Shown here piece by piece: positions 6,636 to 50,062 of a stretch of 64,000 bases of DNA. Every line of letters begins with the position of its first letter. Within the stretch, counting starts at the first letter, position 1. Both the position numbers and the translations under genes were made by a program. This DNA comes from Candidatus Latescibacterota bacterium (GTDB lineage Bacteria; Latescibacterota; UBA2968): the NCBI GenBank assembly GCA_965198115.1, contig OZ240241.1, positions 3,264,001-3,328,000 on the forward strand. The letters are read 5' to 3'. The notes under the pieces were generated by a model. That model worked only from the letters and a program-made list of their open reading frames with translations. It was not told where the DNA came from and did not search any database.

Positions 6636-6652
6636 TCGGGCCTCCATCGGTA

Positions 6653-18657: not shown

Positions 18658-18665
18658 TTTTTTTT

Positions 18666-26933: not shown

Positions 26934-27025
26934 GCGGCATCATTTTCCACCAGAATGATGTTTCGTTCAGGTAGCGGCTTACCTAATTCGCGAATTATCA
27001 AGGGTTAATCTTCGCTCCCGGAAAG

Positions 27026-27041
27026 TGGCACCAGGCTTGCT
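27026..27041 (+). promoter_or_regulatory. sigma54 -24/-12 promoter
   Basis: TGGCAC-CAGGC-TTGCT, a perfect consensus match. Confidence 0.8.
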
Positions 27042-27097
27042 CCCTGCGATCCTGACTGCGGATTCCCCCTTCGGCCCCGATTCGAGAGTCGTTCGAC

Positions 27098-27124
27098 TCA
27101 AGAGTCGACCGAATCCGCCGATCA
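27098..27124 (+). promoter_or_regulatory. sigma28 (FliA)-type promoter
   Basis: TCAA-N15-GCCGATCA. Confidence 0.55.
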
Positions 27125-27143
27125 GGAAAATAGGAGAGCGACC

Positions 27144-27332
27144 TTGGATTACCTTCTCGTCACATTCATCTTCCTGGCCGTGACCATCCTGGCCGGCTTG
27201 TGCCTGTTCGTGATCGAGTATCAGAACAGCCGCACACGCCGTCTCAACCAGGTTTGGTCAGCCCGCCTCGGGGCGTTGTCTGCGCAGCCACGACCCGCCG
27301 ACGGACCCCAGAACGAACAACACGCGGCGTAG
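27144..27332 (+). CDS. Small single-pass membrane protein
   Basis: AGGAGAG RBS, TTG start, N-terminal TM helix, 62 aa. Confidence 0.6.
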   Translation: MDYLLVTFIFLAVTILAGLCLFVIEYQNSRTRRLNQVWSARLGALSAQPRPADGPQNEQHAA

Positions 27333-27366
27333 CGACACACGCTCTTCAGAACACGGAGAACCCTGC

Positions 27367-28311
27367 TTGAATTGCCTCGTTACGGGTGGTGCAGGCTTCA
27401 TCGGTCATAACCTCGTTCGGAATCTGCTCGACAGAGGTCACGCGGTACGCGTGCTCGACAACTATGCCACGGGCAAACGCAAGAACCTCGATCCCTATCT
27501 AAACAACATCGACTTTGTCGAAGGAGATCTCAGAGACTTCGACGTCGTCCGTGAGTCCGCTCGCGATATGGAAGTGATCTTCCATCAGGGTGCGCTCGCA
27601 TCTGTTCCCCGGTCGATCAAAGACCCCATCACTTCCAGCCAGGTCAACATCAACGGGACGCTTCACGTACTCGAAGCTGCGCGCCACCACGACGTGCGCA
27701 GAGTCGTTTACGCGTCATCCTCCTCCGTCTATGGCCACAATCCCAAGCTACCCAAACACGAAGGGATGGTCCCTGCCCCCGTTTCACCTTACGCGGTCAG
27801 CAAACTGGCCGGTGAGCAATACTGTAGGGTCTTCGCGCAGATTTACCACCTCGAGACCGTCGCCCTCCGCTACTTCAACGTCTTCGGACCCGGCCAGGAC
27901 CTCCACTCGCCTTACGCGGCCGTGATGCCGCTGTTCGCGGCAGGCTTCCTGAACGGGACACCCATCACCGTCAACGGCGACGGTGAACAGTCCCGCGACT
28001 TCACGTTCATCGACAACGTCGTTCAGGCTAATCTCTGTGCGGCAACAGCCCGCGAAGCCTCCGGGGGCGCCTTCAACGTCGCTTGTGGCCAGCGTACGAC
28101 GCTCAACCAGGTCCTCGACCACCTCCGCACGATGACCGAGGTCGATACCGAAGTCGTCTACGGTCCCGATCGTCCCGGCGACGTGAAGCATTCGCTCGCC
28201 GACATCGACCGGGCAAAAACCGTCCTCAGCTACACGCCGTCCGTTCCTCTCGAAGCCGGCCTCCGCTCGACCGTCGAATACTACCGATCCCTCGTCGGCA
28301 ACGCCGGCTGA
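27367..28311 (+). CDS. NDP-sugar 4-epimerase (WbpP/TviC-like SDR)
   Basis: TGGAGFIG, SVPRS, SSSSVYG, YAVSK, RYFNVFGP. Confidence 0.9.
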   Translation: MNCLVTGGAGFIGHNLVRNLLDRGHAVRVLDNYATGKRKNLDPYLNNIDFVEGDLRDFDVVRESARDMEVIFHQGALASVPRSIKDPITSSQVNINGTLHVLEAARHHDVRRVVYASSSSVYGHNPKLPKHEGMVPAPVSPYAVSKLAGEQYCRVFAQIYHLETVALRYFNVFGPGQDLHSPYAAVMPLFAAGFLNGTPITVNGDGEQSRDFTFIDNVVQANLCAATAREASGGAFNVACGQRTTLNQVLDHLRTMTEVDTEVVYGPDRPGDVKHSLADIDRAKTVLSYTPSVPLEAGLRSTVEYYRSLVGNAG

Positions 28312-28528
28312 TTCTCGACTCCATACGGAACCAATCAGTAGGACTGGCCTCCCGGCCAGGAAACCCTGCCGCGAATCACACTCCCCATTTCTTTCGCAGC
28401 CGGGAGACTGTTCCCACCGCATCCTCATCGCCTGTGAAGTGGATTCGTGTTCCCTCGCGTGCTCACAGCAGACAATCTCCGATCCAAATGGGGTTGACCG
28501 GGATAGGGTTCTCACCCACTATCCCGAC

Positions 28529-30037
28529 ATGGCCGCCTCCCACTTGAATCGACGGATGATCCTCATCGGGCTCGATTGCGTCCCACCCGAGTTGCTGTTC
28601 GATCGCTTTCGCGACGACCTGCCGAACATCACTTCCCTCGTCGATCGCGGGCTTTCCGCCCCGCTGAAAAGCACGATTCCTCCCATTACGATTCCGGCGT
28701 GGATGTGCATGATGACCGGCAAGGACCCGGGCACCCTCGGCATCTACGGTCTTCGAAATCGACAGGCCCACGACTATCGACCCCTGGCGGTAGCGAACGC
28801 TCGCCACGTGCTCGAACCCACGATCTGGGATACAGTCGGCGGTGCCGGCGGCCAGGTCATCCTCGTCGGTGTGCCTCAGACCTATCCGCCCCCCAAGATC
28901 AACGGCGTCCTCGTATCGTCGTTCCTCGCCCCCAGCACCGAGTCGATCTTCACGCATCCACCCGAACTGAAAGAGGAAATCGCACGCATTACCCCGGACT
29001 ATATGATCGATGTGCCCGACTTCCGCTCCGACGACAGGGACCGCATCCTTGCCGACATCCACGACATGACCGAGAAGCGGTTTCGATTGTTTCGCCACTT
29101 CCTGTCAACCCGCGACTGGCGGTTCGCGATGCTCGTGGAAATGGGCACCGACCGCATCCACCACGCCTTCTGGCGATTCCTCGACGAGACGCACCGCGAC
29201 CATCAACCCGAATCGCCCTACGCCAACGCAATTCTCGACTACTACCGCGCGATCGATACCGAGGTCGGACAGACGCTCGACCTCATCGACGAGGAAACGA
29301 TCGTCGCCATCGTCTCCGACCACGGCGCTAAACGCATCGACGGCGGCTTCTGCGTCAACGAATGGCTGATCGAACGAGGCGACCTCGTACTGAACCAACG
29401 TCCTCTAACGATCACACCCCTGCAGCTTGACAACATCGACTGGTCGCGCACAAAGGCGTGGGGCGAGGGCGGATACTATGCGCGCATCTTTCTGAACGTC
29501 GAAGACAGGGAACCCGAGGGTCAGATCCCCAAGGTCGACTACGAGCGGACGCGAGATGCAATCGCCGCCGCGATAGAATCCGTTCCAGGACCCGACGGAC
29601 GGACATTGGCGACGATCGCGCATCGGCCCGACCGCATATACCGTCAAGTGCGAGGTCATCCCCCCGACCTCATCGTCCATCTGGACGACCTCTACCTGCG
29701 CTCGATCGGATCGATCGGTCACGGACGTCTTTTCATCGAGGGCAACGACGCCGGGCCCGACGACGCCAATCACGCACAGCACGGCGTCTTCGCCGTCGCG
29801 GGGCCTGGGATAGATCCCAAGAGGATCGACGAAATGGACATACTCGATGTCGCGCCAACGCTATTGGAACAGATGGGGCTCGGGATTCCGGAGGACGTGC
29901 AAGGCCGGAGCGTGATCGCGAAGGTCGCCCACTCGTCGGAGCCCGCGGCCGAAAACGCGGAGGAGACAGAGAGCGTCTACACAGAAGAGGAGCAGCAAGC
30001 GGTCGAGGAACGCCTCAGATCCCTGGGTTACCTTTAG
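28529..30037 (+). CDS. Alkaline phosphatase superfamily / nucleotide pyrophosphatase-like protein
   Basis: IGLDC, STIPPITIPAW, DRIHH, SDHG, DDANH; C-terminal EERLRSLGYL. Confidence 0.85.
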   Translation: MAASHLNRRMILIGLDCVPPELLFDRFRDDLPNITSLVDRGLSAPLKSTIPPITIPAWMCMMTGKDPGTLGIYGLRNRQAHDYRPLAVANARHVLEPTIWDTVGGAGGQVILVGVPQTYPPPKINGVLVSSFLAPSTESIFTHPPELKEEIARITPDYMIDVPDFRSDDRDRILADIHDMTEKRFRLFRHFLSTRDWRFAMLVEMGTDRIHHAFWRFLDETHRDHQPESPYANAILDYYRAIDTEVGQTLDLIDEETIVAIVSDHGAKRIDGGFCVNEWLIERGDLVLNQRPLTITPLQLDNIDWSRTKAWGEGGYYARIFLNVEDREPEGQIPKVDYERTRDAIAAAIESVPGPDGRTLATIAHRPDRIYRQVRGHPPDLIVHLDDLYLRSIGSIGHGRLFIEGNDAGPDDANHAQHGVFAVAGPGIDPKRIDEMDILDVAPTLLEQMGLGIPEDVQGRSVIAKVAHSSEPAAENAEETESVYTEEEQQAVEERLRSLGYL

Positions 30038-30069
30038 TCATCTGTCTGCGAATCATCACGGAGGATCCG

Positions 30070-30810
30070 ATGCCGAACGAGATACACAACACCGCCGAAA
30101 TGGGCTCGGGCACGACCGTCGGGCACTATGCTGTCGTATCCGAGCACGTCATCATCGGAAACGGCTGCCGGATCGGCCATCACGCCATCATCCATCCCAA
30201 CACCGTTGTGGGCGACGGCTGCGTCATCGACGACGGGGCCGTCATCGGCAAGCCACCGCTTCGGTCTGCCGCAATGGACATCGAGCCCGGCAGCGACCTA
30301 CCGGGGCTCGAGATTGCAAACGGAACCGTCGTCGGCACGGGGGCGATTCTGTTTCGGGGATCGACGATCGGAAGCGGTAGCCTCGTCGCCGACCTGGCGT
30401 CGGTTCGGGAGAACACGAGAATCGGCGAAAGAACGATAATCGGTCGCGCGTCGGCGATCGAAAACCAGGTCACGATCGGCGATCGATGCAAGGTCGAAGC
30501 AGGGTGTTTTATCTGCGCCTTCAGCGTGATCGAAGACGACTGCTTCGTCGCCCCCGAGGTCACCTTCACGAACGACAATTTCCTCGGCCGAACGGAAGAG
30601 CGGAAGAAGCACTATGCCGGACCAACACTTCGCCGCGGGGCCAGGGTCGGCGCCAACGCTACGATCCTACCCGGGAAGGTCCTCGAGCCCGATGCCCTTG
30701 CTGCCGCCGGCGCGGTCGTGACACGAAATGTTCCTAAACGCGAGATTTTCAAGGGAGTTCCGGCAAAACCCCACGGCTCTGTACCCCCCGAACAATTAGT
30801 CGGTGAGTAG
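30070..30810 (+). CDS. Hexapeptide-repeat sugar N-acyltransferase (WbpD-like)
   Basis: Left-handed beta-helix repeats, FTND, IGANATILPG-like, GVPAK. Confidence 0.88.
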   Translation: MPNEIHNTAEMGSGTTVGHYAVVSEHVIIGNGCRIGHHAIIHPNTVVGDGCVIDDGAVIGKPPLRSAAMDIEPGSDLPGLEIANGTVVGTGAILFRGSTIGSGSLVADLASVRENTRIGERTIIGRASAIENQVTIGDRCKVEAGCFICAFSVIEDDCFVAPEVTFTNDNFLGRTEERKKHYAGPTLRRGARVGANATILPGKVLEPDALAAAGAVVTRNVPKREIFKGVPAKPHGSVPPEQLVGE

Positions 30811-30902
30811 GAACCTTTTTCCCTGCACCACGACGCCCTGAAAGGCGCCTCTCCAATCCATTATTGACTTAAGTATAACTAAAACAATCATTTATATATA
30901 TT

Positions 30903-30935
30903 AGGCTCGTTCCCTCGAACGCAGGGGAACGGGCC
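30903..30935 (+). terminator. Stem-loop after module 1
   Basis: GGCTCGTTCCC / GGGAACGGGCC. Confidence 0.5.
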
Positions 30936-30943
30936 GATTTTCG

Positions 30944-31001
30944 TGGTATCGCGATTGCACTACGGCGTGAGGGCTAAGGCGATCAAGAGATCCGCCGATA
31001 C
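30944..31001 (+). promoter_or_regulatory. Tandem sigma54 and sigma28 promoters
   Basis: TGGTATCGCGATTGCA (GG-N10-GC, 30944-30959); TAAG-N15-GCCGATAC (30975-31001); AT-rich tract upstream. Confidence 0.7.
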
Positions 31002-31080
31002 TGAAAAGAGACGGGATTCCGACGGAACGGCACCACCCCGCCCGGCCGTTCTCATCTTCGAGTAGCCGAAACTTGCTGGA

Positions 31081-32079
31081 ATGTATCCATTCCCGCCGCC
31101 AGAGGCGTGGAAGGAGGTCGCTGTGGTGTTTAGGAAGACACTGCGTCTTCTGGGGCTGATTCTTTTCGCCTACATCCTCACACAGGTGGATGTCGGGAAG
31201 GTCGTGGCGGTCTATCGCGACAGTGACCTCGTCCCTCTGGCTCTCGTGGTCTTGCTCTTCTACCCGACGATCTGGTTCAGGTCGCTACGCTGGCAGCGTC
31301 TTCTCCCCAAGTCCGGCGCCAGGCTCACTCAGAAACAGCTCTTCCGGTCTTACTTGGCCAGCTACTTCGCTGGTACCATCACACCGGGCCGGGTCGGAGA
31401 GCTCAGCCGCGTCGGCTATCTCCGCGCGCACGACGTTCCGATATGGGAATCGGCATTCAGCACGGTCGCAGACCGAGCGCTCGATATCGCCGCCCTCGGG
31501 CTTCTCGCGATGATGGGAGCGATCGTTCTCCTCGACGGCTGGAGCCCCTGGGTCCTCACCTTCGGAACGGCCATCGGCTGTGTGACAATCGCCCTGACGT
31601 GGCGACGAGGGATCGAAAGGGTGCCCGCCCTCATTCGACGACTGCTGCCGCAAAGATGGGGGGAGCGTCTTCACGACCCGGCCAACGCGCTCGTCCAAGG
31701 ACTCGGAAACAACCGCGCCATCGTAGGATCCGCCGTCGGCTGGACAGCCCTCAGCTGGGGGCTTGTCTGCATACAGGTCCTGTTGATGGCCGGCGCCCTC
31801 CACATCGAGGCGGACGCCGCACAGCTCGTCGGCGCCTACAGCCTGGCTGCGGTCGTCGGAGCATTGCCGATCACTGTCGCCGGCGTGGGCACGAGAGATG
31901 CGGCGCTCGTCATCACGTTCGGGTTGGCCGGCCTGCCGGCCGAAACCGCGATCGCGTTCTCATCGGGCGTTCTGCTCCTCTACGTCTTTCAGGGAATCCT
32001 CTGTATGCCCTTCTGGCTGCACGTTCCCGTCAAAAGGACTGACACGCCCGTGATGGCTCGGGTGGCAACAGAGGCATGA
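31081..32079 (+). CDS. Lysylphosphatidylglycerol synthase TM / UPF0104 flippase-like protein
   Basis: RSLRW, TPGRVGE..R, DR..D, LPITVAGVGTRD. Confidence 0.85.
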   Translation: MYPFPPPEAWKEVAVVFRKTLRLLGLILFAYILTQVDVGKVVAVYRDSDLVPLALVVLLFYPTIWFRSLRWQRLLPKSGARLTQKQLFRSYLASYFAGTITPGRVGELSRVGYLRAHDVPIWESAFSTVADRALDIAALGLLAMMGAIVLLDGWSPWVLTFGTAIGCVTIALTWRRGIERVPALIRRLLPQRWGERLHDPANALVQGLGNNRAIVGSAVGWTALSWGLVCIQVLLMAGALHIEADAAQLVGAYSLAAVVGALPITVAGVGTRDAALVITFGLAGLPAETAIAFSSGVLLLYVFQGILCMPFWLHVPVKRTDTPVMARVATEA

Positions 32080-32223
32080 CGAAGCTGAATTTATGTATCG
32101 AGCGCCCGGGAATGGCCAACTGCAGGCAGATTCTCCCCGTCCGATATAGAGAATGGGAGTGGAGCCTGATCATTTTCGATGTAAGCCGTAGAACTTTGCA
32201 CCGGCATCGGAGGAGTCCCTGAA

Positions 32224-33671
32224 ATGAAGATTCTCGTCCTCAACCCCGCCAGTACCGCGACAAAGAACGTCATCCGTGACGTGCTCTACGGGTGCTGGTG
32301 CAAGGGCAAGCGCATGGCGGAGCGACCGTCCCCCCGTTCGCCCTGCTCGAGATCGCGACCATCCTGCAGAACGACGAGCACGACGTCGAGTTTCTCGATG
32401 CGCAGGCCGAGCAGCTCCCGTTCGAGATCGTAGAGCGCAAGGTCACCGACCGCGATGCTGTCATCGTCTCCACATCGACCATGACCTTCACCGAGGATGC
32501 GAACACGCTCCTCGCCCTCAAAGCCGTGAACGAGAACCTGACGACCGTGATGTTCGGGTCGCACCCGTCCTTCATGCCGACCTATTCGCTCGCGCACGAC
32601 GGCCCCGACATCATCGTCCGTCACGAGCCCGAATTCATCATCCGGGACCTGTTCCGCACCCTCCGCAAGGGCGGCGACGACTGGAAAACGACCAACGGCA
32701 TCGGTTTCCGCCAGAATGGCGAGCACATCATCAACCCGGATTATCCGTTTATCGATCTCGATGAGCTTCCCTATCCCGACGTCACACTTCTGCCGCAGGG
32801 TATCGACTACTACAATCCGCTAGTCCGCCGCATGCCCTACATCACCACAACGACGTCCAAGGGATGTCCCGCCAAGTGCACGTTTTGCACGACCCCCTAC
32901 TTCGACGGGATGAAAGTCCGGTTCCAGAGCGCCGACTACGTGATCGGCGAAATCGAGCACTTCCTCGCGCACGGTTTCCGCGAAGTCTACTTCCGCGACG
33001 ACACATTCTTCGTGTGGAAAAAACGAGATATCAAACTCTGCGAGGAGATCGTCAACCGGGGTCTCGACGTCACGTGGATCGCCAACGCCCGCGTCAGCAT
33101 GATCGACAAGGAGATGATGCAACGGGCGAAGGATGCCGGATGCCACACGATCAAGTTCGGCATCGAGTCTGGCGTTCAGGAGATTTTAGACCGAATGCGT
33201 AAGGGCTACACGATCGACCAGGCCTACGAGGTCTTCGAGTGGGTCCACGACGTCGGCATCCACGCCCACGCGCACGTCATGCTCGGCAATCCGGGCGACT
33301 CGCACGAGACGATCGAGCGCACCATCGCGTTTGTGAAGGAGCTCAACCCCGGCACGGCCACCTTCGGGCTCTGCACACCCTACCCCGGCACGCCCTTGTT
33401 CGATGAGGTAGCAGAGATGCATCCCGAGATCAAGGACGGGACGCAGAGCGACCTGTCAAAGCTGCACACCGAGGGCCTCTTCAACGAGCACTACACCTCA
33501 CTCAAGAAGGACGAGCTCGAAGAATACGTCCAGAAGGCCTACCGGGAATTCTACTTGCGCCCCGGCTACGTCGTCGAAACCGCCGTAAATCAGCTCCGCG
33601 GTATCGATGACATCAAGCGATTGAGCATCGCGGCGTCGAACGTCGTCGACTTTGCGTTGCGAGGAGAATGA
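32224..33671 (+). CDS. B12-binding radical SAM protein (frameshift near 32315)
   Basis: N-terminal MKILVLNP; B12-binding region; KGCPAKCTFC, FRDDTF, FGIESG, TPYPGT. Confidence 0.88.
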
Positions 33672-34621
33672 GCATGTCTCGCCCCTGGTCTCTGAGCGTC
33701 ATCATTCCCGCACTCAACGAAGCCGATACGATCGGTGGGATCGTGCGTGAGATCCGCAGGCTCGACGAAGCCGACGAGATTCTCGTCATCGACGACGGCT
33801 CTACTGACGGCACTGCCGACATCGCCGAACGGGCTGGCGCGTCTGTCATACGCCATCCCTACAACATCGGAAACGGCGCCGCCGTCAAAACCGGCATCCG
33901 CGAAGCTACGGGCGACGTCCTTCTGTTCATGGACGGCGACGGCCAGCACGACCCCACCGACATTCCTCGCCTGCTCGACAGGATGAACGACTACGACATG
34001 GTCGTGGGCGCTCGCACGAAGGATGCCAAGGTGTCGGCGTTCCGCTCTCTCGGAAACTGGGGTCTCATCAAGGTCGCCGAATACCTGTCGGGTCACAGCA
34101 TCCCTGACTTGACCTCTGGTTTCCGCGCCTTCCATCGCAACAAGATCCTGCGATTCGTGCACCTGCTGCCCAACCGCTACAGCTACCCGACGACCAGCAT
34201 CATGGCCTTCCTGCACGCGGGCCACACGATTCACTTCGAGCCGCTCAGCTCGATCCGCAAGAGACAGGCGGGGCAAAGCAACATCCGGCCGTTCAAAGAC
34301 GGCTTCCGGTTCATCAACATCATCCTGCGCATCATCATGATGTTCGCGCCACAGAAGATCTTCATGCCTGCGAGCTCGGCTCTCTTGATCACGGGTGGCG
34401 GGCTGCTCAGCTACAACCTGTTCTACCAGCACAACATCCACGACGCCTCCATCATCGTCATCACAGTTGGCACATTCACCTTTTTCTTCGGTCTCCTTGC
34501 CGACCAGATCGCCCACATCCGACGTGAGCTTGGACGTTTCACGCTCATGGATCTGGCCGCTCACCACAGCCATACAAGCGAACCATCCAGTCCAGAAGAC
34601 ATTCGGTCGATCGTCTCGTAG
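33668..34621 (+). CDS. GT2 glycosyltransferase (DPM1-like, C-terminal TM helices)
   Basis: IIPALNE, IDDGSTD, MDGDGQH, DLTSGFR. Confidence 0.92.
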   Translation: MSMSRPWSLSVIIPALNEADTIGGIVREIRRLDEADEILVIDDGSTDGTADIAERAGASVIRHPYNIGNGAAVKTGIREATGDVLLFMDGDGQHDPTDIPRLLDRMNDYDMVVGARTKDAKVSAFRSLGNWGLIKVAEYLSGHSIPDLTSGFRAFHRNKILRFVHLLPNRYSYPTTSIMAFLHAGHTIHFEPLSSIRKRQAGQSNIRPFKDGFRFINIILRIIMMFAPQKIFMPASSALLITGGGLLSYNLFYQHNIHDASIIVITVGTFTFFFGLLADQIAHIRRELGRFTLMDLAAHHSHTSEPSSPEDIRSIVS

Positions 34622-34658
34622 CGCGCGATACGATCGACCCGCTCGACAAGGGCAGCAC

Positions 34659-36432
34659 ATGAACCTCCTCGGTCTCTCCATCTGTCACGACGCTCACGTT
34701 GCGGTCGTTCGCGACGGAAAGCTCGTGGCGGCGATCGGCGAAGAACGGCTCAACCGCGTCAAGATGTACTATGGGTTTCCCTTCCTCGCGATCGAGGAGG
34801 CGCTCAGAATCTCGGGGTTGACCGGCAACGAGGTCGATGCCGTCTGCATCGGGTCCACCTCGACGAAGTATGTCCCAAAGTGGTTGATGGACCTCTACCT
34901 GGACCCGGACCACCTGCACTTCGACGGAAGCAACCATTACACGGTCCCCGAAAGACTTCGCTACCTCCAGGGCTTCCTTGGGGCAAGGTTCGCTCCCGAA
35001 CCCACGACCAACGAGGCCAGGCTCAGAAACGTCCTCGCTGACTACGGTATCGACGCACCGATGTTCTTCTACGATCACCATCACGCCCACTGCGCATCCT
35101 CTTACTTCACGTCCGATGCGGAGAAGGCCCTTTCCCTCTCGATCGACGGCGGTGGTGATGGTCGATACGCTACAGCATGCATACGAAAACGGAATCGGCA
35201 GATGCCTGTCGTCATCTCCGGGTGAAGGTCGACGCCCGGAGTATTCGCCCGCCGACGTCTACTCCTTCGTGACGAAACACCTCGGCTTCAAACGCGTTCA
35301 GCACGAAGGGAAGGTGACTGGATTGGCCGCACACGGCGACCCAGATCGGCTCTACGCACACTTCGAAAAGCTGACCTACCTCGAAACGGAGTCACGAACG
35401 TTCAGGTCCGCGATTCCCTACGACCGTTTTAGAACGAAATTCGCGAGAACCATCGCACTCGGAACGCCCTACGACACGGGCCTGTTGGAATATTTCCGCC
35501 GCGAGTTCGACGGCGAGTCAAGAGAAGACATCGCCGCCGCACTGCAAAAGCGGTGCGAAGACCTCGCAAGGGACTACGTCACCCTTCATCTGGAGGCGTC
35601 GCCATCCAGAAAGATCCTTCTCTCCGGGGGCCTCTTTGCCAACGTCCAGATCAACCAGATTGTCTCCGAGATCGATGGTGTGGACGAGATTTACGTGCAT
35701 CCCTGCATGGGCGACGGAGGCCTCGCAGCTGGCGCCTGTTTCCTCCACTACGAGCGATCGCAACGCAAGCTGGGGCGTGTCTGGGTCGGGGACCGAATCG
35801 ACGACGTCTATCTGGGCCCGGACTACAGTGAGACCCAGGTCGAGCGCGCCCTCGCGGCAAGCGGGCTTCGATATTTCAAGAGTAAGAGTCCGAGCGGTGA
35901 TATGGCGACCCTGTTCTCTAAACGAAGAGTCGTGGGCCATTTCTCGGGCAGAATGGAATACGGGCCGAGGGCCCTCGGGAATCGGTCGCTGCTCTACGCG
36001 CCCGACGACCCGGCCGTGAACGCCCAGCTCAACCACCGTCTCCACCGAACGGAGTTCATGCCTTTCGCCCCAATGTGCCTCGCCGAGTGTGCGCCTGACC
36101 TCTTCGAGGCATTCCACGCGGGTCGAACCGCAGCTCAGTTCATGACGACGACGTTCGAGATTCGACCGGAATGGCGTCATCGGCTAGCCGGTGTCTGTCA
36201 CATCGATCAGACAGCACGTCCTCAAACCATCCGGGCCGATCAGAACCCACGCGTGCACGGTATCCTCGAGGCCTACCGCCGAATCACCGGGACGCCCGCC
36301 CTCATCAACACATCGTTCAACATTCACGGCGAACCCATCGTCTGCACGCCCGAGGATGCGATTCGGTCGTTCAAAGCCGACGCGTGCGACGTGCTCGTGC
36401 TAAATGATTTCATCTGCGAGAAGCCGTCTTGA
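34659..36432 (+). CDS. Carbamoyltransferase, NodU/CmcH family (frameshift near 35180)
   Basis: HDA, EERLNRVK, HHHAH, DGGGD, EGKVTGLA, EYGPRALGNRS, NTSFNIHGEPIV. Confidence 0.9.
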
Positions 36433-37676
36433 GCGAGGCCCTCCCCGCCCGACCACCCGAGACCGTCCCGGGTCAACGGCCTCGACCCCATCTCCTGTGT
36501 CTCCCTGCGGACTCCGTGGACGCGCTCGAAACGCTGGGGGTTGCCTCCTTCATCTGGCGTCACTACGCGCCCAGAGCCTACTTCTCGAAGATTATATTCG
36601 CCCTTCTCGGGGACCACGCATCGGAGCGCGGCCTCGACCCCAGCACGTCGATCCTCGTTTTCCGACGTCGATGGGGAGCGGGTCGGTTCTCACGCGCGTT
36701 CTTCTACGCCATACGTGTTCCGCTCTTCACGGCCTACCTCGTTCAGCTCATCCGTCGCGAACAGATCGACGTGGTTCGCGCGCGATCGGCCGGATACAAC
36801 GCCCTGGCCGGCCTCCTCGCCGCGAAACTGACGGGCACCCGCTGCGCCGTCTCCCTGCACGCACCCTACGCTGTCGATCGCGAATACTGGCCACGCGGTT
36901 TTCGCCGCTGGGAAGAGGCCTGCATCGAGCGGATCGTGCTGACTCTCGCGGATCGTGTCTACTGCGTCGGCAATGCGTTGCGGAACTATGCGATCTCCGC
37001 TGGAGTCCCGCCGGAACGGGCCCAGGTCCTGTTCAATCGCGTCGACATCGCCAAGTTCGCGAACGTCCACCCGAACGATGCATCACGCATCTGGTCGGAA
37101 TTCCGCGTCGCAGAAACAGATCGCATACTCATCACGGTAGGCAGGTTCGTCCCATCCAAAGACCCGTTGACCCTGTTGGAAGGGTTCAGAGACCTCTACG
37201 CCGACGACCCGGGCTACAAACTCGTCATGGTTGGCGACGGGCCACTGCGGGGTCAGGTGGACGCCTACGTGGAGAAACACGGCCTGACCCAGTCGGTGAA
37301 GTGCGTAGGAAACGTTTGCAACGATCTGCTCCCCGCTTACCTGCACGCCGCGGACGTGTTCGTCTTCCCGACTCACTTCGAAGGCTTCGGCATTGTCCTC
37401 GCAGAGGCTCAGGCCGCCGGAATCCCCATCGTGACGACACGGATTCCGGGCACATCCGACATCGTGTCCGACGACAACGCCTGGCTCGTCCCGGTAGGAG
37501 ATCCCCAGGCCCTGGCAGCGGCCGTCCGAACGGTCTTCGTGGACGCCGCAGCGGCCGCTCGCAAGACCGATTCCGGACGCAGAAACGTGGGCCGCTTCGA
37601 CGAGCGGGTGATTCTCTCGCGTGAAGAAGCCCTCTACGACGAATTGCTCGCCTCACCCACGGGGAAACGGGCGTGA
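36429..37676 (+). CDS. GT4 glycosyltransferase
   Basis: VGR...KD, VGDGPLR, EGFGIVLAEA. Confidence 0.9.
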   Translation: MSEALPARPPETVPGQRPRPHLLCLPADSVDALETLGVASFIWRHYAPRAYFSKIIFALLGDHASERGLDPSTSILVFRRRWGAGRFSRAFFYAIRVPLFTAYLVQLIRREQIDVVRARSAGYNALAGLLAAKLTGTRCAVSLHAPYAVDREYWPRGFRRWEEACIERIVLTLADRVYCVGNALRNYAISAGVPPERAQVLFNRVDIAKFANVHPNDASRIWSEFRVAETDRILITVGRFVPSKDPLTLLEGFRDLYADDPGYKLVMVGDGPLRGQVDAYVEKHGLTQSVKCVGNVCNDLLPAYLHAADVFVFPTHFEGFGIVLAEAQAAGIPIVTTRIPGTSDIVSDDNAWLVPVGDPQALAAAVRTVFVDAAAAARKTDSGRRNVGRFDERVILSREEALYDELLASPTGKRA

Positions 37677-38551
37677 AAGCACGGATCAAGCGCAAACTGC
37701 GAGCCCTGCTCGATCGAGGATCACGGCGACGAACGCTCGGCTGCCTGGCGACGCTCTATGGCACTCTGACGCAGCGATCGTGGATGCGAATCACCTATCG
37801 CGACAGATTCTGGCATATCCGCCGCCGCGGCGGGACCGTGGTCAGCAGAGACCCGGCCTGGTGGAAACCCGACCCGGCAGAAAGCACGCCCGTTGCGGCC
37901 GACCACTGGTTCGAAGTCTACGAGCCGCGCAAGGGTGACACCATCGTCACAATCGGGGCGGGGCGCGGAGAGGAGATTCTGTGTTTTGCCGATGCGGTAG
38001 GGACGTCGGGACGGGTGATCGCAGTTGAGGCACATCCGGAAAGCTATGCGCATCTCGAACGGTTCTGCGAAGTCAATGGATTGGACCACGTCACACCTGT
38101 CCACGCGGCCGTCCTCGATCGGGAGGCGGTGGTTCGCATCACGGACGACGCCCACGTCGCGAACACGATCCTATCCGAAGCTGGCAGCATAGACGTGCCC
38201 GGAATGACACTCGATACCCTCCTACATCGCCTGGGCGTCGACCACGTCGATTTCGTGAAAATGAACATCGAAGGTGCTGAACGATGGGGCATCCTGGGAA
38301 TGGAGGACGCGCTAGCCAGCCACCCGGTCCTGTGTATCGCCTGTCACGACTTCATCGCCGAACGCGATGGAGCGGCATCCATGCGAACAAAGTCGTTCGT
38401 CATACGATTCGTCGAGGACAGGGGCTACGAAGTGATTTCACGAGACGACGACCCGAGGCTCTACGTCCGAGACCAGGTCAACGCGCGTTACCCGAATCGC
38501 CAACTGGTCGACGCCAATGCCCCCTTAATTGGTGAATCGGTGGCACTGTAG
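37673..38551 (+). CDS. FkbM family methyltransferase
   Basis: IGAGRG, AVEAHP, TLD..L, VKMNIEGAE. Confidence 0.85.
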   Translation: MKARIKRKLRALLDRGSRRRTLGCLATLYGTLTQRSWMRITYRDRFWHIRRRGGTVVSRDPAWWKPDPAESTPVAADHWFEVYEPRKGDTIVTIGAGRGEEILCFADAVGTSGRVIAVEAHPESYAHLERFCEVNGLDHVTPVHAAVLDREAVVRITDDAHVANTILSEAGSIDVPGMTLDTLLHRLGVDHVDFVKMNIEGAERWGILGMEDALASHPVLCIACHDFIAERDGAASMRTKSFVIRFVEDRGYEVISRDDDPRLYVRDQVNARYPNRQLVDANAPLIGESVAL

Positions 38552-38663
38552 TGTCGCGGGCTGGGAAAGCCTTTCCGCAATCCCCGGCGTCAGTGGCCCG
38601 CGCTTCATCTCAATTTCATCGTAACATACTGTTTATAAATTTCTTATACAACATAAAGACCCG

Positions 38664-38713
38664 TGGCATATTCTTTGCCAAAGGGTTAATGGGGTCGGGA
38701 TTCCTGCCGATAA
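38664..38713 (+). promoter_or_regulatory. Tandem sigma54 and sigma28 promoters
   Basis: TGGCATATTCTTTGC (38664-38678); TAAT-N15-GCCGATAA (38687-38713); AT-rich tract upstream. Confidence 0.72.
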
Positions 38714-38786
38714 ATAGAACGATGGTGTCCGGCCCTATGATGATGGCCCATTCTGTACACGAAGCACACTGAAAGAGGAGTTCCCA

Positions 38787-41700
38787 ATGGCTCGGAAAGT
38801 CCTGCTCATCGACCCGGGACAGAAGTTCGCCGAGAACGGTTCTCGGCATTCCGTTCGGCAGACCCCGCACATCGGTCTCTGCTATCTCGCGACGGTCCTG
38901 CGGGACATAGCTGACGTCAAGGTGCTCGACATGCCATTGCTGCGTCTCGGCGAGGAGGATCTCCTCGAGGAATACGCGAAGCTCGATTCTGGCGACATCG
39001 TGGGTATCACAGCAGCTACCTTCAACGTGCCCGAAGCACTGCGCGCTGCGGAGATGGCCAAAGCCCACAATTCTGATTTCCTGGTCGTGATGGGAGGCCC
39101 CCACGTGAACGCCTTCCCGACCGACGTGCTTGAGAGATGCGAACACGTCGATGCGGCAGTGGCTGGCGAAGGGGAGAAGATCCTCACAGAGATCGTGAAC
39201 AATTATGACCAGCCTGGCTTCAGCTGGGACATTCCGGGAGTTGCTTGGCGCAATAGCGGGGAGTTGACCTACAGACCTGTCACAAATGATTGGGTCGTCC
39301 AGGACCTGGACGAGATTCCCCTCCCAGACTGGGAGTTTCTCGAGCTGGATCGCTATTCGAAACGATATTCGTCCCACTTCGATCGCATGGAGCAGGTAGC
39401 TCCGCTCTCCACGAACCGGGGATGCCCCTACCAGTGTTCCTTCTGCGACGGCGCGAACCTGACGAACAAGCTCAAGTGGCGATCCGCTCAGAATACGATT
39501 GACGAAATCCAGAATGGTCTGGAGCGGCACAATCTCCGGCACTACTACATCACAGACTCCGTCATGTGCATCCCCAAGTGGCGGTTCCTCGAGTTCTGCG
39601 ACCTGATGATCGCAACAGGGCTGAACAAAGAGGTTTCGATGATCGGGCAGGCTCAGATCAACTCGATCGACGAAGAAATCGTCACGAAATACAGCGAAGC
39701 AGGTGGGGAGTACATCTTCTTTGGCCTGGAGAGCGGAAACGAAGAGGTGTTGAAAAAGGGCTATATCCGGATCTCTCAACGAGATGAAGTGGGTGAAGGT
39801 GCCGTGGTTCCTGGCATGGGGGCGCGGTTAGAGTGTGCGGAACCTCTTCGGAATCTGCTCAGGGATGTTTATGTCTCCGACGGTAAGGAAGATCATATCG
39901 TTGAATGCGTCGAGTGTGCGGAATCCGCTGGCTCGGTTCTTGACGATTTGGACGATTCGGTTGAGGCCTTCGGCGATGGCGTTGGTAAGACGCGTGTTCA
40001 CGAATGCGAGGACGCCGAAGAAGTGCTGTCGCAGGGTCCTGACGAACTTTCGCAGGGGTTCAAGTCGACTTCTGAGTGCGGACGTCGTCCAGCATTTCAG
40101 GAAGCGTTCGGCAGCCCAGGGCGCTTTGTATTCCCAGAACTGCTCGAACTCGTCCTTGAGTCTCCAGGCTCTATAGATTCGGTAGTTCGCCTTCTCCAGT
40201 GCTTTGAGTGTCCGAGTATCCCCTCTGGAGCGTGTCGCTGAGTGCCGGTAGAGGAGCCATCGGAGGCCCTTCATGGCTTTGCGCTCATCCGGGGCAGCTT
40301 TACGCCACTGGTCCTTACGGACCTCGTCAACGGCGGCATTGAGAGCCTTGACGATGTGAAAGCGATCGAGGACCAGCTTGGCATTCGGACAGTGTTCCTG
40401 GATGGCTCCGATGTAAGCTTCGCTCATGTCGCAGCAGGCCCACTCGATCTTGGATCTCTGGTAGGGACTGAGAGCCTCTGTGAAGAACCGATCGATCGTT
40501 TTACGCGCCCTGCCGCGGCCAACCCACACCACGCAGGAGCGGTCCAGATCGTAAACGAGCGTGGCGTACCTGTGACGCTTGGCGTAGGAGATCTCGTCGA
40601 TCCCGATGGTTTTGAGCCCTCGGATACGATGACCTTCACGAAGCCGCGTGATGGATCGGTGAAGGAGATCCGACAGCGTCGAGGCAGAGATGCGCAGCAA
40701 CTCGGACGCCGCCTTCTGCGTCATGGTCTGGCAGTAGCGCAGCATGGCATACTCGAAGCGATACGTCACCCGAGAGAACCGCTCCGCCCACGGAATCTCC
40801 TCGACCACACGACCGTGGGTAGGACACCGAATCTCCCGAGGATGGTAGAGAAGCCAGACCCTCCACCCGCACACCGGAATGTCACGCCACCGACGCGGAT
40901 GGGGCATTGTGCGGACGATTTTACCTCGACGGCCGCACTCCGGACAACAACAACCATTCTTATGTGGCTTTACGGCGATGACGAAACAGCTTCTCCCCTC
41001 AAACCACCAGCTGACAACACGGAACCCCTTGAATCTCAGCAGTTTCGATAGTAATCTGCTCCCGGTCATAGGTCGCACCCCCTTCGCTTTGATTGTCCTA
41101 CACACACAACCAAGCGTAGGGAACGATCTATGACCTTGTCATTCTATAGTTTCACCGTTGAGAAACCCGGATAGAGCCTGAAAAAAAGAACGGCAAACGC
41201 ATCAGCAAGGACCGGGTACGAAGAATCGTCGACGCTGCACACTTTGGCGGTCTGCATCCCCGTGGTTCGTTCATCTTTGGGCTCCCATTCGACACCCAGG
41301 CAAGCGTCGAGGAAACGATCGAGTTCTCGCACGAACTAAAGTTGCATTCGGCCAATTTCTTCATCCTCGACTTCTATCCTGGAACGAGAGCAAAGGACTA
41401 CCTGCTGAACGGAGAAGGCGGTCTCACCATGCTAGATGGTGGCATAGATTGGTCGGTCTACACGCCTAGTAGGGACAAAGCCGCTGTCCGCGTCAATGAC
41501 CTGACGCCCGACCTCCTTCGGGATTACCTGGCTCAAGCAAAGTCCCTTCCCATGCCCTACGAAGACAAGGATCTCACCTTTCGCCAGAAACTGACCGAGT
41601 TCATCTACTTCGTAGAGAACGGTTTCATGGCGGTTTCGGAATCTGGAGATTGGTACGATTCCATAGAAAGTATGAAGACCCACGTATCCGCGGAAACGCT

Positions 41701-41869
41701 CACAGCGTGCGCACCCCGGCTGGAGCGGGTGAGTGAATTGACGGGAAATCAGCTCCGCGTGGCTTGTGTAAGGGTTCATGACGCCCAGACGTCTTCGGAA
41801 ACCCCATCGCGAGAGCCCAGCCGGCCCTGCCTGGCCTGGGCTCTCAGCTTTTTGTGGGACGACTCATAG
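38787..41869 (+). pseudogene. B12-binding radical SAM gene interrupted by ISL3 copy 4
   Basis: RGCPYQCSFC and FGLESGNEEVLKK before the IS; NGKRISKD...FIFGLP...FYPGT resumes after it. Confidence 0.9.
39759..41178 (-). mobile_element. ISL3 copy 4 (transposase 39828-41105)
   Basis: Same IRs; flanks TGAAAAAG / TGAAAAAAAG fit an 8-bp TSD with a homopolymer length difference. Confidence 0.95.
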
Positions 41870-42019
41870 TAGCTCCAACCTCATCCAGCAGTTCCGCCTC
41901 CCGAAGACGACCCCCTCGGAAAATTATTCCTCGATGCAGGACTCCCCGATAGGATTTCCATCACTATAACCTTCTATAAGATATTATTTAATAACAGTTT
42001 AGTTCGGAATACCTGAGCA

Positions 42020-42035
42020 GGGCACAATGCTTGCT
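42020..42035 (+). promoter_or_regulatory. sigma54 promoter
   Basis: GGGCAC-AATGC-TTGCT after an AT-rich tract (41965-42002). Confidence 0.7.
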
Positions 42036-42233
42036 AAAGAATTCACTGCGGCAATTTCAGATACGGTCGATAAACGGAAAGAAGGACCACCCCAGAAACA
42101 CCTCCACCCGCCATCCCACCCTGATATCCGGCCTCTGTCCAAAATGCACTCGCGGTCAGCGGCTTGATTCGAGTTTGAGTCATTCACGCGTCACCAAGAC
42201 GCCAAGAGCAGCATTTAAAGGGAGAACGTTCCG

Positions 42234-43420
42234 ATGCGAGTACTGATTACAGGCGTTGACGGCTATCTCGGCTGGAGTCTGGCCGTCCATCTGGCCAACG
42301 CAGGTCATACGATCGGTGGAATCGACACAGGGATGCGCAGGGAGTGGGTCGCGGAAATGGGCTCACAGAGTGCGACACCCATCGGCTCGATGAAGGAACG
42401 CTCTGCGGCCTTCCGTGAGCACTTTGGCGAAGATCTGGTCTACGTAGATGGCGATCTCCGGAACTACGACACGACGTGTGACCTGCTCGCCTCCTTCCGG
42501 CCCGACACGATCGTCCACCTTGGTGAGATGCCATCGGCACCCTACAGCATGGTCGACGTCCATCACGCGGTCTTCACGCAGACGAACAACATCGTCGGCA
42601 CACTCAATCTCCTTTACGCGATGAAGGACCACACACCCGAGGCCCATCTCCTTAAGCTTGGCACGATGGGCGAATACGGCACACCCAAGCTCGATATTCC
42701 CGAGGGCTTCTTCGAGGTCGAGTACCGGGGGAAAAAGGACGTTCTCCCCTTCCCCAGGCAGGCGGGCAGTTGGTATCACCAAAGCAAGGTACACGACACG
42801 AACAACATCATGATGGCTTGTAAGTTCTGGGGCCTCCGGTCCACGGACATTATGCAGGGTGTCGTGTATGGGACACGCATCGCCGCTATGAATGACGACG
42901 AGCAGATGCTGACCGATACGATTTCGATCAGTCTTTCGGCACCGCCATCAACCGATTCTGTGCCCAGTCGGTGGTCGACGCGCCGATGACACTTTACGGC
43001 AAGGGAAAGCAGAAGAGGGGCTTCCTCCCCCTCTGCGACTCGATGCAGTGCCTGACCCTGGCTACTGAGAATCCTCCCGAGCCTGGTGAATACCGGGTCT
43101 TCAATCAGTTCGAGGAAGTCTATGACATCACGGGGCTCGCGACGACGGTACGTGAGGTCGCCAATGAGTTCGGCATCGAAACGAAGATCAACCAGTTCGA
43201 GAACCCGAGAAAAGAGCTCGAAGAGCACGATTACAACCCGGATCATCAGAAGCTGTTCGACCTCGGATACAAACCGACGCGTGACATGAGGTCCGAGCTG
43301 CGTACGGTGTTCCAGGATCTCTTGCGGTATCGGGATCGCATCGAAGAGGTCAGGGACTCGGTCTTCCCGGATATCCGCTGGGATGGCACGAGGCGGCGTT
43401 CGAAGATCATCGGTGAGGTC
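42234..43420 (+). CDS. sqdB: UDP-sulfoquinovose synthase (frameshift near 42915; 3' end uncertain, possibly fused to the next domain)
   Basis: GVDGYLGW, PSAPYSM, KLGTMGEYGTP, YHQSKVHD, TDIMQGVVYG, GEYRVFNQF, ENPRKE. Confidence 0.9.
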
Positions 43421-43519
43421 AACGGCGTGCATCGCCCCCCCACTTCGAACGGAACCGGCCACGGCAAGAGCACGGACGAGCTGGAAATCGGGATTCCTGC
43501 CAACCGGATCGCGAAGGGT

Positions 43520-44334
43520 GCGCCCCGGAATGGCTGGGCAGACGAGGCGTCTACGCTGGCATCACGGGCGGCGGCCTCGGGAATCACGTCCCCGGCTACT
43601 CGTCCTACAACGTGCGCATCAGGACGGAGATCCTCGAGGACTTCCTCAAAGAGCTGCCCAAGGATGCGTCGATTCTCGACGTCGGATGCAGCAACGCCCC
43701 CCTCTACCCTTTCATCCGGGAGTGGGGATTCAACGGCAAATACATAGGCGCCGACCTACTCGTCAGGCAGCTAAAGCAGGCCAAAGAAAGAGGGGCCTCA
43801 CCCGTCAACGTGAACGCCATCAATCTGCCGTTCCCGAGCCAGAGCTTCGACCTGGTCATCTGCACGGAGATGTTCGTTCATCTGCTCGACCGGGACGTTC
43901 AGCGCGACGTGCTTCGCGAGATCGACCGGGTCCTCAAGCCGGGTGGGACCATCACCCTCAGCCTCACGAACGCTCATGCTTTGACCGTTCGCCGCCACTT
44001 GGAGAAGGCCGTCGGCCGGATCTACGAGACGCAGCCCTACTGCACTTATTTCTCGTGGGACGACATCGAGAACTTGCTTTCCGACGCGTCTGACGGTCTG
44101 AAGGTCGAGCGATACCGCGCGGTCAAGTACTACGATATGGTCCCCTCGTGGTTCGGAAAACTGCGAGGAATCTTCAAACATCCTGCGGTGATGTACGCTG
44201 CAGATCGACTGTTCGGAATCCTGCCAGTTACGAACCGGTTCGGGGGCATCATCCAGCTCCTAATTCGGAAGAACGAAGCCTCTACCGTCAAACGGGTCGA
44301 GGCGAACGACCGGGAACTGGTCTATGCGAAGTAG
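43520..44334 (+). CDS. Class I SAM-dependent methyltransferase (start uncertain)
   Basis: ILDVGCS, NLPFPSQSFDLV, RVLKPGG. Confidence 0.85.
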
Positions 44335-45501
44335 GAGCAGCATCCGGGTTCTCCACATGGGAAACCTGGGTAACAATGCCTATCGTGAAGTGAAGTTCCT
44401 GCGACGCCGGGGCATCGAAGCGGATCTACTGGTCTTTTCCGGTGAGCTGGAAGGCAATACCCACCCCAGGCACGAGGACCTTCAGAACTACCGCGGCTTG
44501 CCCGATTGGGTCAAAGTCGAACACGAGCTCTGGGGCCGGCGTCCTGATCCCAAGACAAGACCAGTCGATTGGTTGGAGTGGAGAGCACAGCTGCCGGAGA
44601 GGGTTCGTCGATTCCTGGGGGGATATGATATCGTCCAGGCCTATTGCACGACGTCGATCTGGGTCAGGCGATTCATGCCAGAGGACGGACCGGCCCTCAT
44701 CACCTTCAGTACGGGCAGCGACCTGCGTGAACTGGCAACTCTGGGGCGTAGGCGACGAGCTCGTCGCCTACGACAGGCTTATCGATACGCCGACCTCAAA
44801 CTCTCAACAACCTCGACCAGATAGACAGCTGGGAACGGTTGGGTTTCGGAGACCCTGTCTTCATACCCAACCCTTACGATCTGGAGAACGTCTCCCCGTC
44901 CGAACGTCAGGACCACGACCGCCACGAGCTTCTCCTGTTCCATCCCACCCGGCTGGACTGGACTTACTCAGGCGAAGACCGAAGCTCCGGAAAGGCCAAC
45001 GACAGGCTGATTCGAGCATTCCGTCGCTTCCTCGACGATGGGCATAAAGCGCGTCTGCTTCTTCTTGAGCGAGGCGCGGACGTGCGGGCGACACACGAAC
45101 TCGTTAAGTCCCTCGGGCTGGCACAGTTCACCCTCTGGGAGTCGGAACTCAAGAAGAAACAGCTGGTCGACTACCTCAATGCGGCAGACATCGTCGCCGA
45201 CCAGTTCACGCTGGGCGCCTTCGGCGGGACGGCTCTGGAAGCCATGGCCTGTGCAAAGCCTCTCCTGACGCACCTCAAGTCGAGTCGCGCCCTGGAGTGC
45301 TATGGCGATCTACCACCCATTATGAATGTGGCCACCGAAGATGAGATCTACACAGCCCTGGTCGCCCTGCGATCACCCGCCGAGCGGAGCAAGCTCGGTC
45401 GCCGGGCCAGAGCCTGGATCGAAAAGCATCACGACTGGCGCGGTGTAACAGACACGCTGATCCGACTTTATGAGTCGACGCTGAACGGTACGGGTAGCTG
45501 A
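44324..45501 (+). CDS. GT4-like glycosyltransferase (frameshift near 44810)
   Basis: HMGNLGNNAY, GSDLRE, KANDRLI, DQFTLGAFGGTALEAMAC. Confidence 0.82.
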
Positions 45502-45626
45502 GTCGCCTCCGCCAGGCACGCTGCTTGCCATCCCATCCCGACATCCCACCCCTCAGTCTGAATCACGGAGAAATCCTCCGTCTGATGAACACGTTGGAGC
45601 GATCCTGACACATACGGAACCGCATC

Positions 45627-48869: not shown

Positions 48870-48881
48870 GGACGGCGCTTC

Positions 48882-50045: not shown

Positions 50046-50062
50046 GAAAGCGGGAGGAAATC

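Follow-up and report, generated by a model that had tools for sequence, protein, structure and literature searches.

The window analysed here, a stretch of 64,000 nucleotides from the genome of a Candidatus Latescibacterota bacterium (contig OZ240241.1, forward-strand positions 3,264,001 to 3,328,000), contains at positions 27144-51010 of its own numbering a glycan locus whose genes fall into four modules. The locus codes for epimerases, an acetyltransferase, glycosyltransferases of families 2 and 4 (GT2 and GT4), B12 radical S-adenosylmethionine (SAM) proteins, methyltransferases, a carbamoyltransferase, a sulfoquinovose-synthase-like enzyme, a flippase-like protein and Wzx; no flagellar gene and no glycosyltransferase with tetratricopeptide repeats (TPR) was found in it. 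Each module is preceded, on the + strand, by a cassette of four parts: a palindromic activator site, an AT tract resembling a binding site for integration host factor (IHF), a sigma54 box and a sigma28 promoter (Table 1).

A first-pass annotation of this DNA had placed a sigma54 box in each large intergenic gap of the locus. Read directly in the sequence, all four GG-N10-GC boxes are there as given (27026, 30944, 38664 and 42020), but two other gaps of more than 200 nt (28312-28555 and 32080-32291) have no sigma54 box and a fifth box lies at 45514; this box, and another 3.4 kb past the window end, were excluded from the cassette set because they have no activator site. The AT-rich tract reported ahead of three boxes was recovered for boxes 2-4 (best 25-nt AT share upstream, 0.88; box 1, 0.68), and the three sigma28 pairs, TCAA-15-GCCGATCA, TAAG-15-GCCGATAC and TAAT-15-GCCGATAA, have exactly the 15-bp spacing described. 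The fourth site, said to have no -35 element, does have a weak one, ACTGCGG at 42045, correctly spaced from the -10 element GTCGATAA at 42066. Overlooked in that first pass was the palindrome GGAA-N5-TTCC, found 91-135 nt upstream of the GG in the window cassettes. Short-read contigs, which probably derive from the source sample and are thus not independent, agree with 26500-39779 and 41156-43061 with zero differences.

Table 1. Cassettes and genes of the glycan locus (window numbering)
Feature	Position	Strand	Remarks
Cassette 1 activator site (GGAA-N5-TTCC type)	26935..26949	+	12.9 bits; 91 nt upstream of GG
Cassette 1 IHF-like site	26996..27008	+	read by eye against the IHF consensus; missed by pattern search
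Cassette 1 sigma54 -24/-12 box	27026..27041	+	14.0 bits; conserved in G001
Cassette 1 sigma28 promoter	27096..27124	+	-35 ACTCAAG, -10 GCCGATCA; 19.1 bits
Small open reading frame (ORF), first gene after cassette 1	27144..27332	+	one predicted membrane helix, then EYQN motif
WbpP/WbgU/TviC-like UDP (uridine diphosphate)-sugar 4-epimerase	27367..28311	+	orthologs 65-80% in eight relatives
Alkaline-phosphatase-superfamily (Phosphodiest) enzyme	28556..30037	+	sole module-1 gene also retained by aflagellate relatives
Hexapeptide N-acetyltransferase, QdtC-like	30070..30810	+	putative WbpD-type role
Cassette 2 activator site	30809..30823	+	12.7 bits; 135 nt upstream of GG
Cassette 2 AT tract	30860..30903	+	contains IHF-like site at 30882-30894
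Cassette 2 sigma54 box (30944-30959) and sigma28 promoter (30973-31001)	30944..31001	+	13.2 and 15.2 bits
Module 2	31123..38551	+	flippase-like LPG_synthase_TM, B12 radical SAM, AglJ-like GT2, split carbamoyltransferase, GT4, FkbM methyltransferase
Cassette 3 activator site	38563..38577	+	10.4 bits; 101 nt upstream of GG
Cassette 3 IHF-like site	38622..38634	+	reverse complement of tract in sigma54 flagellin promoter
Cassette 3 sigma54 box (38664-38679) and sigma28 promoter (38684-38713)	38664..38713	+	16.2 and 14.3 bits
Module 3	38787..41869	+	B12 radical SAM gene broken by ISL3 copy (about 39788-41152)
Cassette 4 activator site	41917..41931	+	18.7 bits, strongest of four; 103 nt upstream of GG
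Cassette 4 AT tract	41975..42001	+	ahead of the sigma54 box
Cassette 4 weak sigma54 box (42020-42035) and weak sigma28 promoter	42020..42073	+	7.9 and 9.6 bits
Module 4	42234..51010	+	split UDP-sulfoquinovose-synthase-like, methyltransferase, split GT4, FemAB/GNAT-like, split Wzx flippase, two unnamed genes, epimerase
Extra sigma54 box ahead of FemAB-like gene	45514..45529	+	13.5 bits; activator score -5.2; no sigma28 partner

Matrices for both promoter types were trained on upstream regions outside the window, taken from our own gene calls in the genome that holds it (hereafter G000; 8.43 Mb, a single contig, 14% repeats). The sigma54 matrix reaches at least 14 bits in 60 of the 3782 upstream regions, against 3-6 in shuffles, and the sigma28 matrix at least 16 bits in 32 of 3782, against 1-3 when shuffled and 0-4 with wrong-spacer controls; on the reverse strand the latter finds 18 regions, part of which divergent genes probably explain. 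Sigma54 sites head flgF, flgC, fliM and one flagellin gene, while sigma28 sites head flagellin genes, fliD, a gene for a methyl-accepting chemotaxis protein and fliL, with flgM recovered through the consensus pattern; numerous further sigma28 matches sit ahead of unrelated genes, some certainly by chance. The cassette motifs match the flagellar promoters of G000 itself, in keeping with their initial assignment to the RpoN and FliA types.

With cut-offs of at least 12 bits for sigma54 and 14 bits for sigma28, the sole close tandem pairs (15-100 nt) in 8.43 Mb are sites 1-3 (four rows in the result, site 3 being counted twice), against 0.46 expected. Loose cut-offs that admit site 4 (7.5 and 9 bits) give 51 close pairs against 38.6 expected, near chance; site 4 was therefore accepted only together with its activator site. 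When an activator site of at least 10 bits, GG-N10-GC and a sigma28 site of at least 9 bits are combined, exactly the four window sites remain among 3042 boxes (0.73 expected), and slightly looser triple cut-offs return 6-7 sites genome-wide, the four window cassettes still among them. The idea that flagellar operons share the tandem arrangement was rejected: each has a single promoter of either type, and the close tandem occurs at the glycan locus alone. Elsewhere in G000, at 12/14 bits, four pairs have a separation of about 200 nt and one further pair is in reversed order. The cassette architecture is almost certainly real; it far exceeds what chance would give, and its code is that of flagellar promoters.

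The palindrome lies 82-147 nt upstream of the GG in 18/18 cassettes examined, 14 of which form the training set. The activator matrix was built from those 14 sites of relatives, and for cassette 1 this relatives-only matrix includes a near-identical site from G001; random 100-nt stretches reach 10 bits in 0.5% of cases. Applied to held-out G000 promoters, it scored 16.2 bits at flgF, 12.1 at the sigma54 flagellin, 11.8 at fliG and 12.8 at flgB, and the site also occurs at sigma54 promoters in the flagellin/flgF regions of G001, G009, G010 and G036. The distances between activator site and GG show phasing with a period of 10.8 nt (R 0.71; p 0.0002 by permutation; 17 non-independent sites), as expected if the activator reaches the promoter through looping. 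The IHF-like pattern, a loosened version of the IHF consensus, occurs in 17 of the 60 upstream regions with a sigma54 site and in 71 of 2936 other regions (mean of the shuffles, 1.5). By this measure sigma54 promoters in G000, a genome with five HU/IHF genes and an intact rpoN (501-aa open frame), generally have the AT tract. A response-regulator/AAA activator gene at G000 position 4507195 (465 aa, intact) lies 5 kb from flgB, next to a kinase gene. The activator gene, flagellin and fliA all occur in the same 11 of 41 genomes, and the activator is the best candidate for the protein binding GGAA-N5-TTCC. Activator sites also stand at further promoters of the G000 contig (C1:1365868, 721038, 5438329 and 6934973); the genes behind these code for a split membrane/TPR protein, for small unnamed products and for a member of the EPSP_synthase family.

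Several other promoters of this kind deserve mention. The sigma54 and sigma28 sites spaced by about 200 nt (G000:C1:732198, 734152, 4954561 and 5506898) precede unnamed or unrelated ORFs; the pair at 4954561 additionally has a strong activator site, and small RNAs between these promoters are possible. In a second, reversed dual promoter (G000:C1:8258178-8258232, L070), conserved in four genomes, sigma28 lies 51-57 nt ahead of sigma54; the other copies are at L101:11333-11384, L220:226 and L255:14929-14986, and the three scored have no strong activator site. The G000 copy stands before a glycan module that has been displaced (AsnB-like, carbamoyltransferases, GT2, GT4), with WcaJ-like, Wzy_C-TPR and fliM genes nearby. 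Upstream of a second gene for a sigma70-family factor (L035:260-290; G000:C1:1671054) lies a sigma28 site of 17 bits, a hint of one more tier of control below FliA.

Conservation of cassette 1 is extensive: it stands ahead of the small ORF-epimerase operon in 7/7 flagellin-bearing relatives with the region assembled (G001, G002, G007, G009, G010, G012 and G036), which span two families of Latescibacterota; left out of this count were G003, where the contig ends inside the ORF, and G005 and G006, for which no epimerase ortholog was obtained. The motifs and their spacing are retained across both families while the spacers diverge, the sigma54-sigma28 distance being 37-39 nt in three genera, whereas the genus of the window has 72/77 nt. 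There is also a second cassette (38-48 nt), which lies behind the acetyltransferase gene in G002, G003, G009, G010 and G036, behind an additional AsnB gene in G001, and ahead of the acetyltransferase gene in G006. The G036 locus has seven forward cassettes across about 90 kb, and that of G010 at least five.

Epimerase orthologs (65-80%) occur in 9/11 flagellin genomes and 0/30 others, apart from one 53% match in G037; the eight relatives that have them all bear flagellin. Acetyltransferase orthologs were likewise found in 9/11 flagellin genomes, with one 49% match in the aflagellate G028. In the eight aflagellate relatives examined the cassette is gone (best sigma54 score, 5.4 bits) and the phosphodiesterase gene is retained. 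In G026, an aflagellate member of the genus of G036, cassette, small ORF and epimerase gene have been lost from the same neighbourhood. Two of the eight aflagellate relatives retain a 13-bit sigma28-like site. Such sites (up to 13 bits) lie about 50 nt ahead of the phosphodiesterase gene in the fliA-less, aflagellate G023 (L110:10018) and G013 (L119:12057), with weaker ones in G008 and G017; in G023 the gene follows one for a Peptidase C25 protein. These sigma28-like sites may be relics or belong to another sigma factor. Taken together, the gene distributions support the view that the cassette and the module-1 genes track flagella across relatives.

In G000 itself the flagellar system appears to be in decay. 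A 1-nt deletion splits fliA, which is one full frame in G001, G010 and G036; FlhA has no match in G000 and matches in 4/4 relatives tested; FliP, FliQ and FliR gave no tblastn match in G000, and only a C-terminal piece of FlhB was found. The export genes flhA-flhB-fliPQR are deleted in G000, a 15.2-kb stretch of G001 is reduced there to 0.4 kb, and the sigma54 box of flgB carries one additional base. The contigs assembled from short reads of one sample, probably the source sample, span the 0.4-kb stretch and the fliA frameshift unchanged; long-read error was rejected as the cause of frameshifts for the two stretches compared with short-read contigs, this one and the one in the window. By hand tally, 11 of 26 flagellar genes are broken or partial; among orthologs taken from arbitrary stretches of G001 the figure is 32 of 169 (Fisher p 0.011, without correction for length and with 32 genes that have no ortholog left out). 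Genome-wide, some 14-19% of compared orthologs are broken, which together with the ISL3 copies is the pattern of recent genome decay. With fliA frameshifted and the export genes deleted, the sigma28 halves of the cassettes are orphaned in G000, where the cassette is probably a half-dead relic; the sigma28 site of cassette 1 is still identical to that of G001 although the flanks differ, and loss of the flagellum thus looks recent. The proposal of a motility or developmental regulon, with its prediction of rpoN, fliA and flagellin genes, therefore stands as regards the flagellar motifs, the co-occurrence with flagella and the presence of rpoN and flagellin genes, but not as regards an intact fliA or a functioning system: in its gene content, the flagellar regulon of this genome is decaying rather than working.

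What the locus makes was approached through its own genes and those under the same control. LpxC, LpxB and WaaA were not found in any of five genomes, the positive controls being matched in E. coli and others, which argues that the locus is not one for ordinary O-antigen and that the constitutive O-antigen first weighed against a motility role was not the real alternative. Export-type genes are present (Wzx and the flippase-like gene here and, behind the cassettes of relatives, a PMT_2 GT-C glycosyltransferase in six flagellin-bearing genomes and an ABC flippase in G036). They suggest that the glycan is built on a lipid carrier and reaches its end point beyond the cytoplasm, while the flagellins have GT2-TPR, DegT and GNAT genes of their own in the flagellar cluster, under flagellar promoters (G000 and G036). 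Given the missing lipid A genes and this separate cluster, the glycan is likely a lipid-carrier-built coat of swimming cells.

Following the activator site through the genomes led to a family of secreted proteins of about 1,700 aa, with 20% Ser+Thr in the part read and Por_Secre_tail domains, present in 10/11 flagellin genomes and 0/30 others; PorV was found in 21/21, and an intact PorU-like gene is 45% identical over its full length to a relative's C25 protein. The first paralog has the activator site and a sigma54 box in 8/8 cases examined, and other paralogs have sigma28 sites at 20.9-22.7 bits in 5/5. Three split paralogs in G000 (C1:8204953-8219187 and 5912513-5915043) include one with a predicted sigma54 promoter and two with predicted sigma28 promoters. 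A structure model of the N-terminus was too poor for structure search (predicted local distance difference test, pLDDT, 43).

We propose that each module would be switched on twice, sigma54 first and then sigma28, and that swimming cells would thereby build a dedicated surface glycan. In the hook-basal-body phase, the activator encoded at 4507195 would bind GGAA-N5-TTCC, IHF would bend the AT tract and sigma54 polymerase would fire; FliA, once released from FlgM, would then fire the downstream promoter. In cassettes 2-4 the sigma28 -35 element overlaps the predicted sigma54 start, which suggests a relay (an OR gate) rather than joint action. The enzymes would make modified sugars on a lipid carrier, which would be flipped outward and attached outside the cytoplasm, most likely to, or as an anchor of, the type IX-secreted proteins of about 1,700 aa, of which there are one sigma54 paralog and several sigma28 paralogs. 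Acceptors made at an early and at a late stage would account for the need of the glycan genes for two promoters, a logic that fits the flagellins equally. With the flagellum being lost in G000, only the sigma54 arm could still work there. We give a probability of roughly 0.55 to a swimming-stage surface glycan on, or anchoring, secreted proteins, the branch of the first-pass proposal, a swarmer-stage surface, that fits best. A fuller version is possible and is offered tentatively: flagellated Latescibacterota devoid of lipid A may run a swimming-stage envelope programme in which the activator site and the repeated sigma54-to-sigma28 relay cassette set the timing of a giant glycan locus. The product of this locus would anchor or coat the early and the late paralogs of the lineage-specific 1,700-aa type IX family, as a coat or flagellar sheath, and G000 would be losing the whole programme.

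A number of observations weigh against this reading. The acceptor role of the 1,700-aa family, a candidate one, rests on co-occurrence and promoters, and the cargo genes lie outside the window. The PMT_2 GT-C gene seen in G001 was not found in G000, and the FemAB-like gene scores 32.8 bits against TIGR03019 (cut-off 260), a weak likeness to the Wbp/Vim proteins. The fliM and flgC sigma54 promoters have no activator site (-4.2 and 6.8 bits), site 4 scores low for both promoters, and some boxes of relatives are weak (G001 cassette 2 sigma54, -0.2; G012 sigma54, 3.5; G010 cassette 1 sigma28, 6.9 bits). The aflagellate G028 has a pair at chance level (8.2/15.7 bits, 45 nt) on the strand opposite its acetyltransferase gene. 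The idea that the glycan locus decays with the flagellum was not supported, 5/19 of its genes being broken, not above the 32/169 baseline. Lastly, the 30 aflagellate genomes represent few independent losses, so that counts across relatives are not independent.

Three other explanations were weighed against a glycan on or anchoring secreted proteins. It is very improbable that the motifs arose as chance matches or as copies of intergenic DNA and do not act as promoters: site 4 alone is at chance level as a pair, but the genome holds exactly four triples, all in the glycan locus, and motifs and spacing persist across two families over diverging spacers and recur at flagellar genes. The cassette may instead work while the locus mainly feeds flagellin glycosylation, supplying modified nucleoside diphosphate (NDP)- or cytidine monophosphate (CMP)-sugars to the GT2-TPR enzymes beside the flagellins; we consider this the leading competitor, albeit an unlikely one. 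The lineage has one sigma54 flagellin (at 369340) and several sigma28 flagellins, which would account for a double promoter; Ser+Thr make up 18-20% of the middle parts of the flagellins; and a pseudaminic-acid-type set (Polysacc_synt_2, DegT, CTP_transf_3, NeuB) occurs in modules of G036 and G010. In the window, however, neither flagellin genes nor a flagellin transferase (Maf, FlmG or GT2-TPR) is linked to the locus; flagellin lies about 20 kb away in G036 and 34 kb in G009; the Maf-type PF01973 was found in 1/41 genomes, not G000; and the flagellin-adjacent enzymes form a separate cluster under flagellar promoters. The Wzx, ABC and LPG-type flippases and the GT-C enzyme act on lipid carriers, and flagellin, being exported through its own channel, should not meet these. 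In the literature, RpoN-dependent flagellin glycosylation enzymes are known, according to excerpts of one paper (PMC3930126), whereas a paper that put forward a lipid carrier for the flagellin of Aeromonas is listed as retracted (PMC3931799). The flagellin branch of the original proposal is thus the weaker one.

Alternatively, with the cassette again working, the glycan may end on lipid rather than protein, as a lipopolysaccharide (LPS)-replacing outer-membrane glycolipid, a flagellar sheath lipid or a capsule. The missing lipid A genes leave room for another glycolipid, Wzx, Wzy_C-TPR and WcaJ-like genes are present, and the loci, up to about 100 kb, show capsule-like variability; a general outer-leaflet lipid should, however, survive loss of the flagellum, yet the aflagellate relatives have no orthologs of the module-1 epimerase and acetyltransferase. 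We hold an end on lipid to be rather improbable. It merges in part with the preferred reading, a glycan that coats or anchors secreted proteins, since the type IX anchor of Bacteroidota is itself a glycolipid, as described in part of one source (PMC7468200).

Some features of the locus and its surroundings complete the description. The small ORF is present in seven genomes (six aligned), always first behind cassette 1; it has no Pfam match and no Atlas match at 0.9 or more, and its product is possibly a regulator or scaffold for the glycan enzymes. The phosphodiesterase, used as query across all genomes, gave one close relative and 79 distant matches from other phyla, and the sulfoquinovose-synthase-like gene was set aside as a poor marker for relatives (close match in 1/40). 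A weak isolated sigma28 site lies at 32119, inside module 2. The claim that nearby housekeeping genes use sigma70 promoters holds for the only one found, TTGACA-17-TATATT at 21355, ahead of TPR-mdh. The window also contains five near-identical ISL3 copies (11380-12657, 17311-20016, 39788-41152, 51758-53035), two large serine recombinase genes with Recombinase domains (5487-6731 and 53746-55197), possibly edges of integrated elements, and, at 8792-11251, a gene whose 819-aa product combines four CHRD domains with a type IX secretion tail.

These results offer a readable flagellar regulatory code for an uncultured phylum (an activator site, sigma54 and sigma28 motifs and a candidate activator), connect the control of flagella with an exported glycan of large size and perhaps with type IX cargo, two systems that are usually investigated in separate phyla, and give a pointer to the surface covering of a diderm in which no lipid A genes were found. 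G000 also shows a regulon in mid-loss, with the export apparatus deleted, fliA broken and the promoters still legible. The individual components have been described before. Literature searches turned up neither a four-part cassette repeated along a giant locus for an exported glycan, nor the activator site, nor the connection to type IX secretion, nor did any paper on a Latescibacterota flagellar regulon or cassette turn up, most subscription journals and supplements being outside their scope.

The GGAA-N5-TTCC palindrome may resemble the ftr consensus of Caulobacter. There, the flagellar sigma54 activator FlbD binds a dedicated element, ftr, to activate hook and flagellin genes (excerpts of PMC3930126), as the activator may do here; unlike in Caulobacter, a sigma28 promoter follows, whereas the Caulobacter flagellin glycosylation genes are under CtrA (excerpts of PMC7591256). 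The latter source, in the same excerpts, describes FlmG-type TPR and glycosyltransferase proteins that bind and glycosylate flagellin; comparable GT2-TPR genes lie beside the flagellins in G000 and G036, but outside the window. In Porphyromonas and Tannerella, the acetyltransferase WbpD, the AsnB-like WbpS and the FemAB-related VimA make a cargo-tethering sugar (PMC7468200, in part). QdtC-like acetyltransferase, AsnB-like and FemAB-like genes are found in the locus and its orthologs, and PorU-like and PorV genes in the genome. The anchor there is LPS and flagella are absent, whereas here lipid A genes were not found, control looks flagellar and the similarity is at family level only.

The closest regulatory parallel concerns HP0366 of Helicobacter pylori, which we take to be PseC. 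The gene is listed in the intermediate flagellar class (RpoN and FliA) of that organism in excerpts of two papers (PMC2864241; PMC2883586), and dual RpoN/FliA control is what this class has in common with the glycan-locus cassette; H. pylori also has RpoN-dependent enzymes for flagellin glycosylation (PMC3930126). The H. pylori activator FlgR, according to PMC3930126 in part, has no DNA-binding domain and needs no enhancer, whereas here an activator site, an IHF-like tract, a sigma54 box and a sigma28 promoter form one cassette, copies of which stand ahead of each module in a locus of 25-100 kb that includes lipid-carrier genes.

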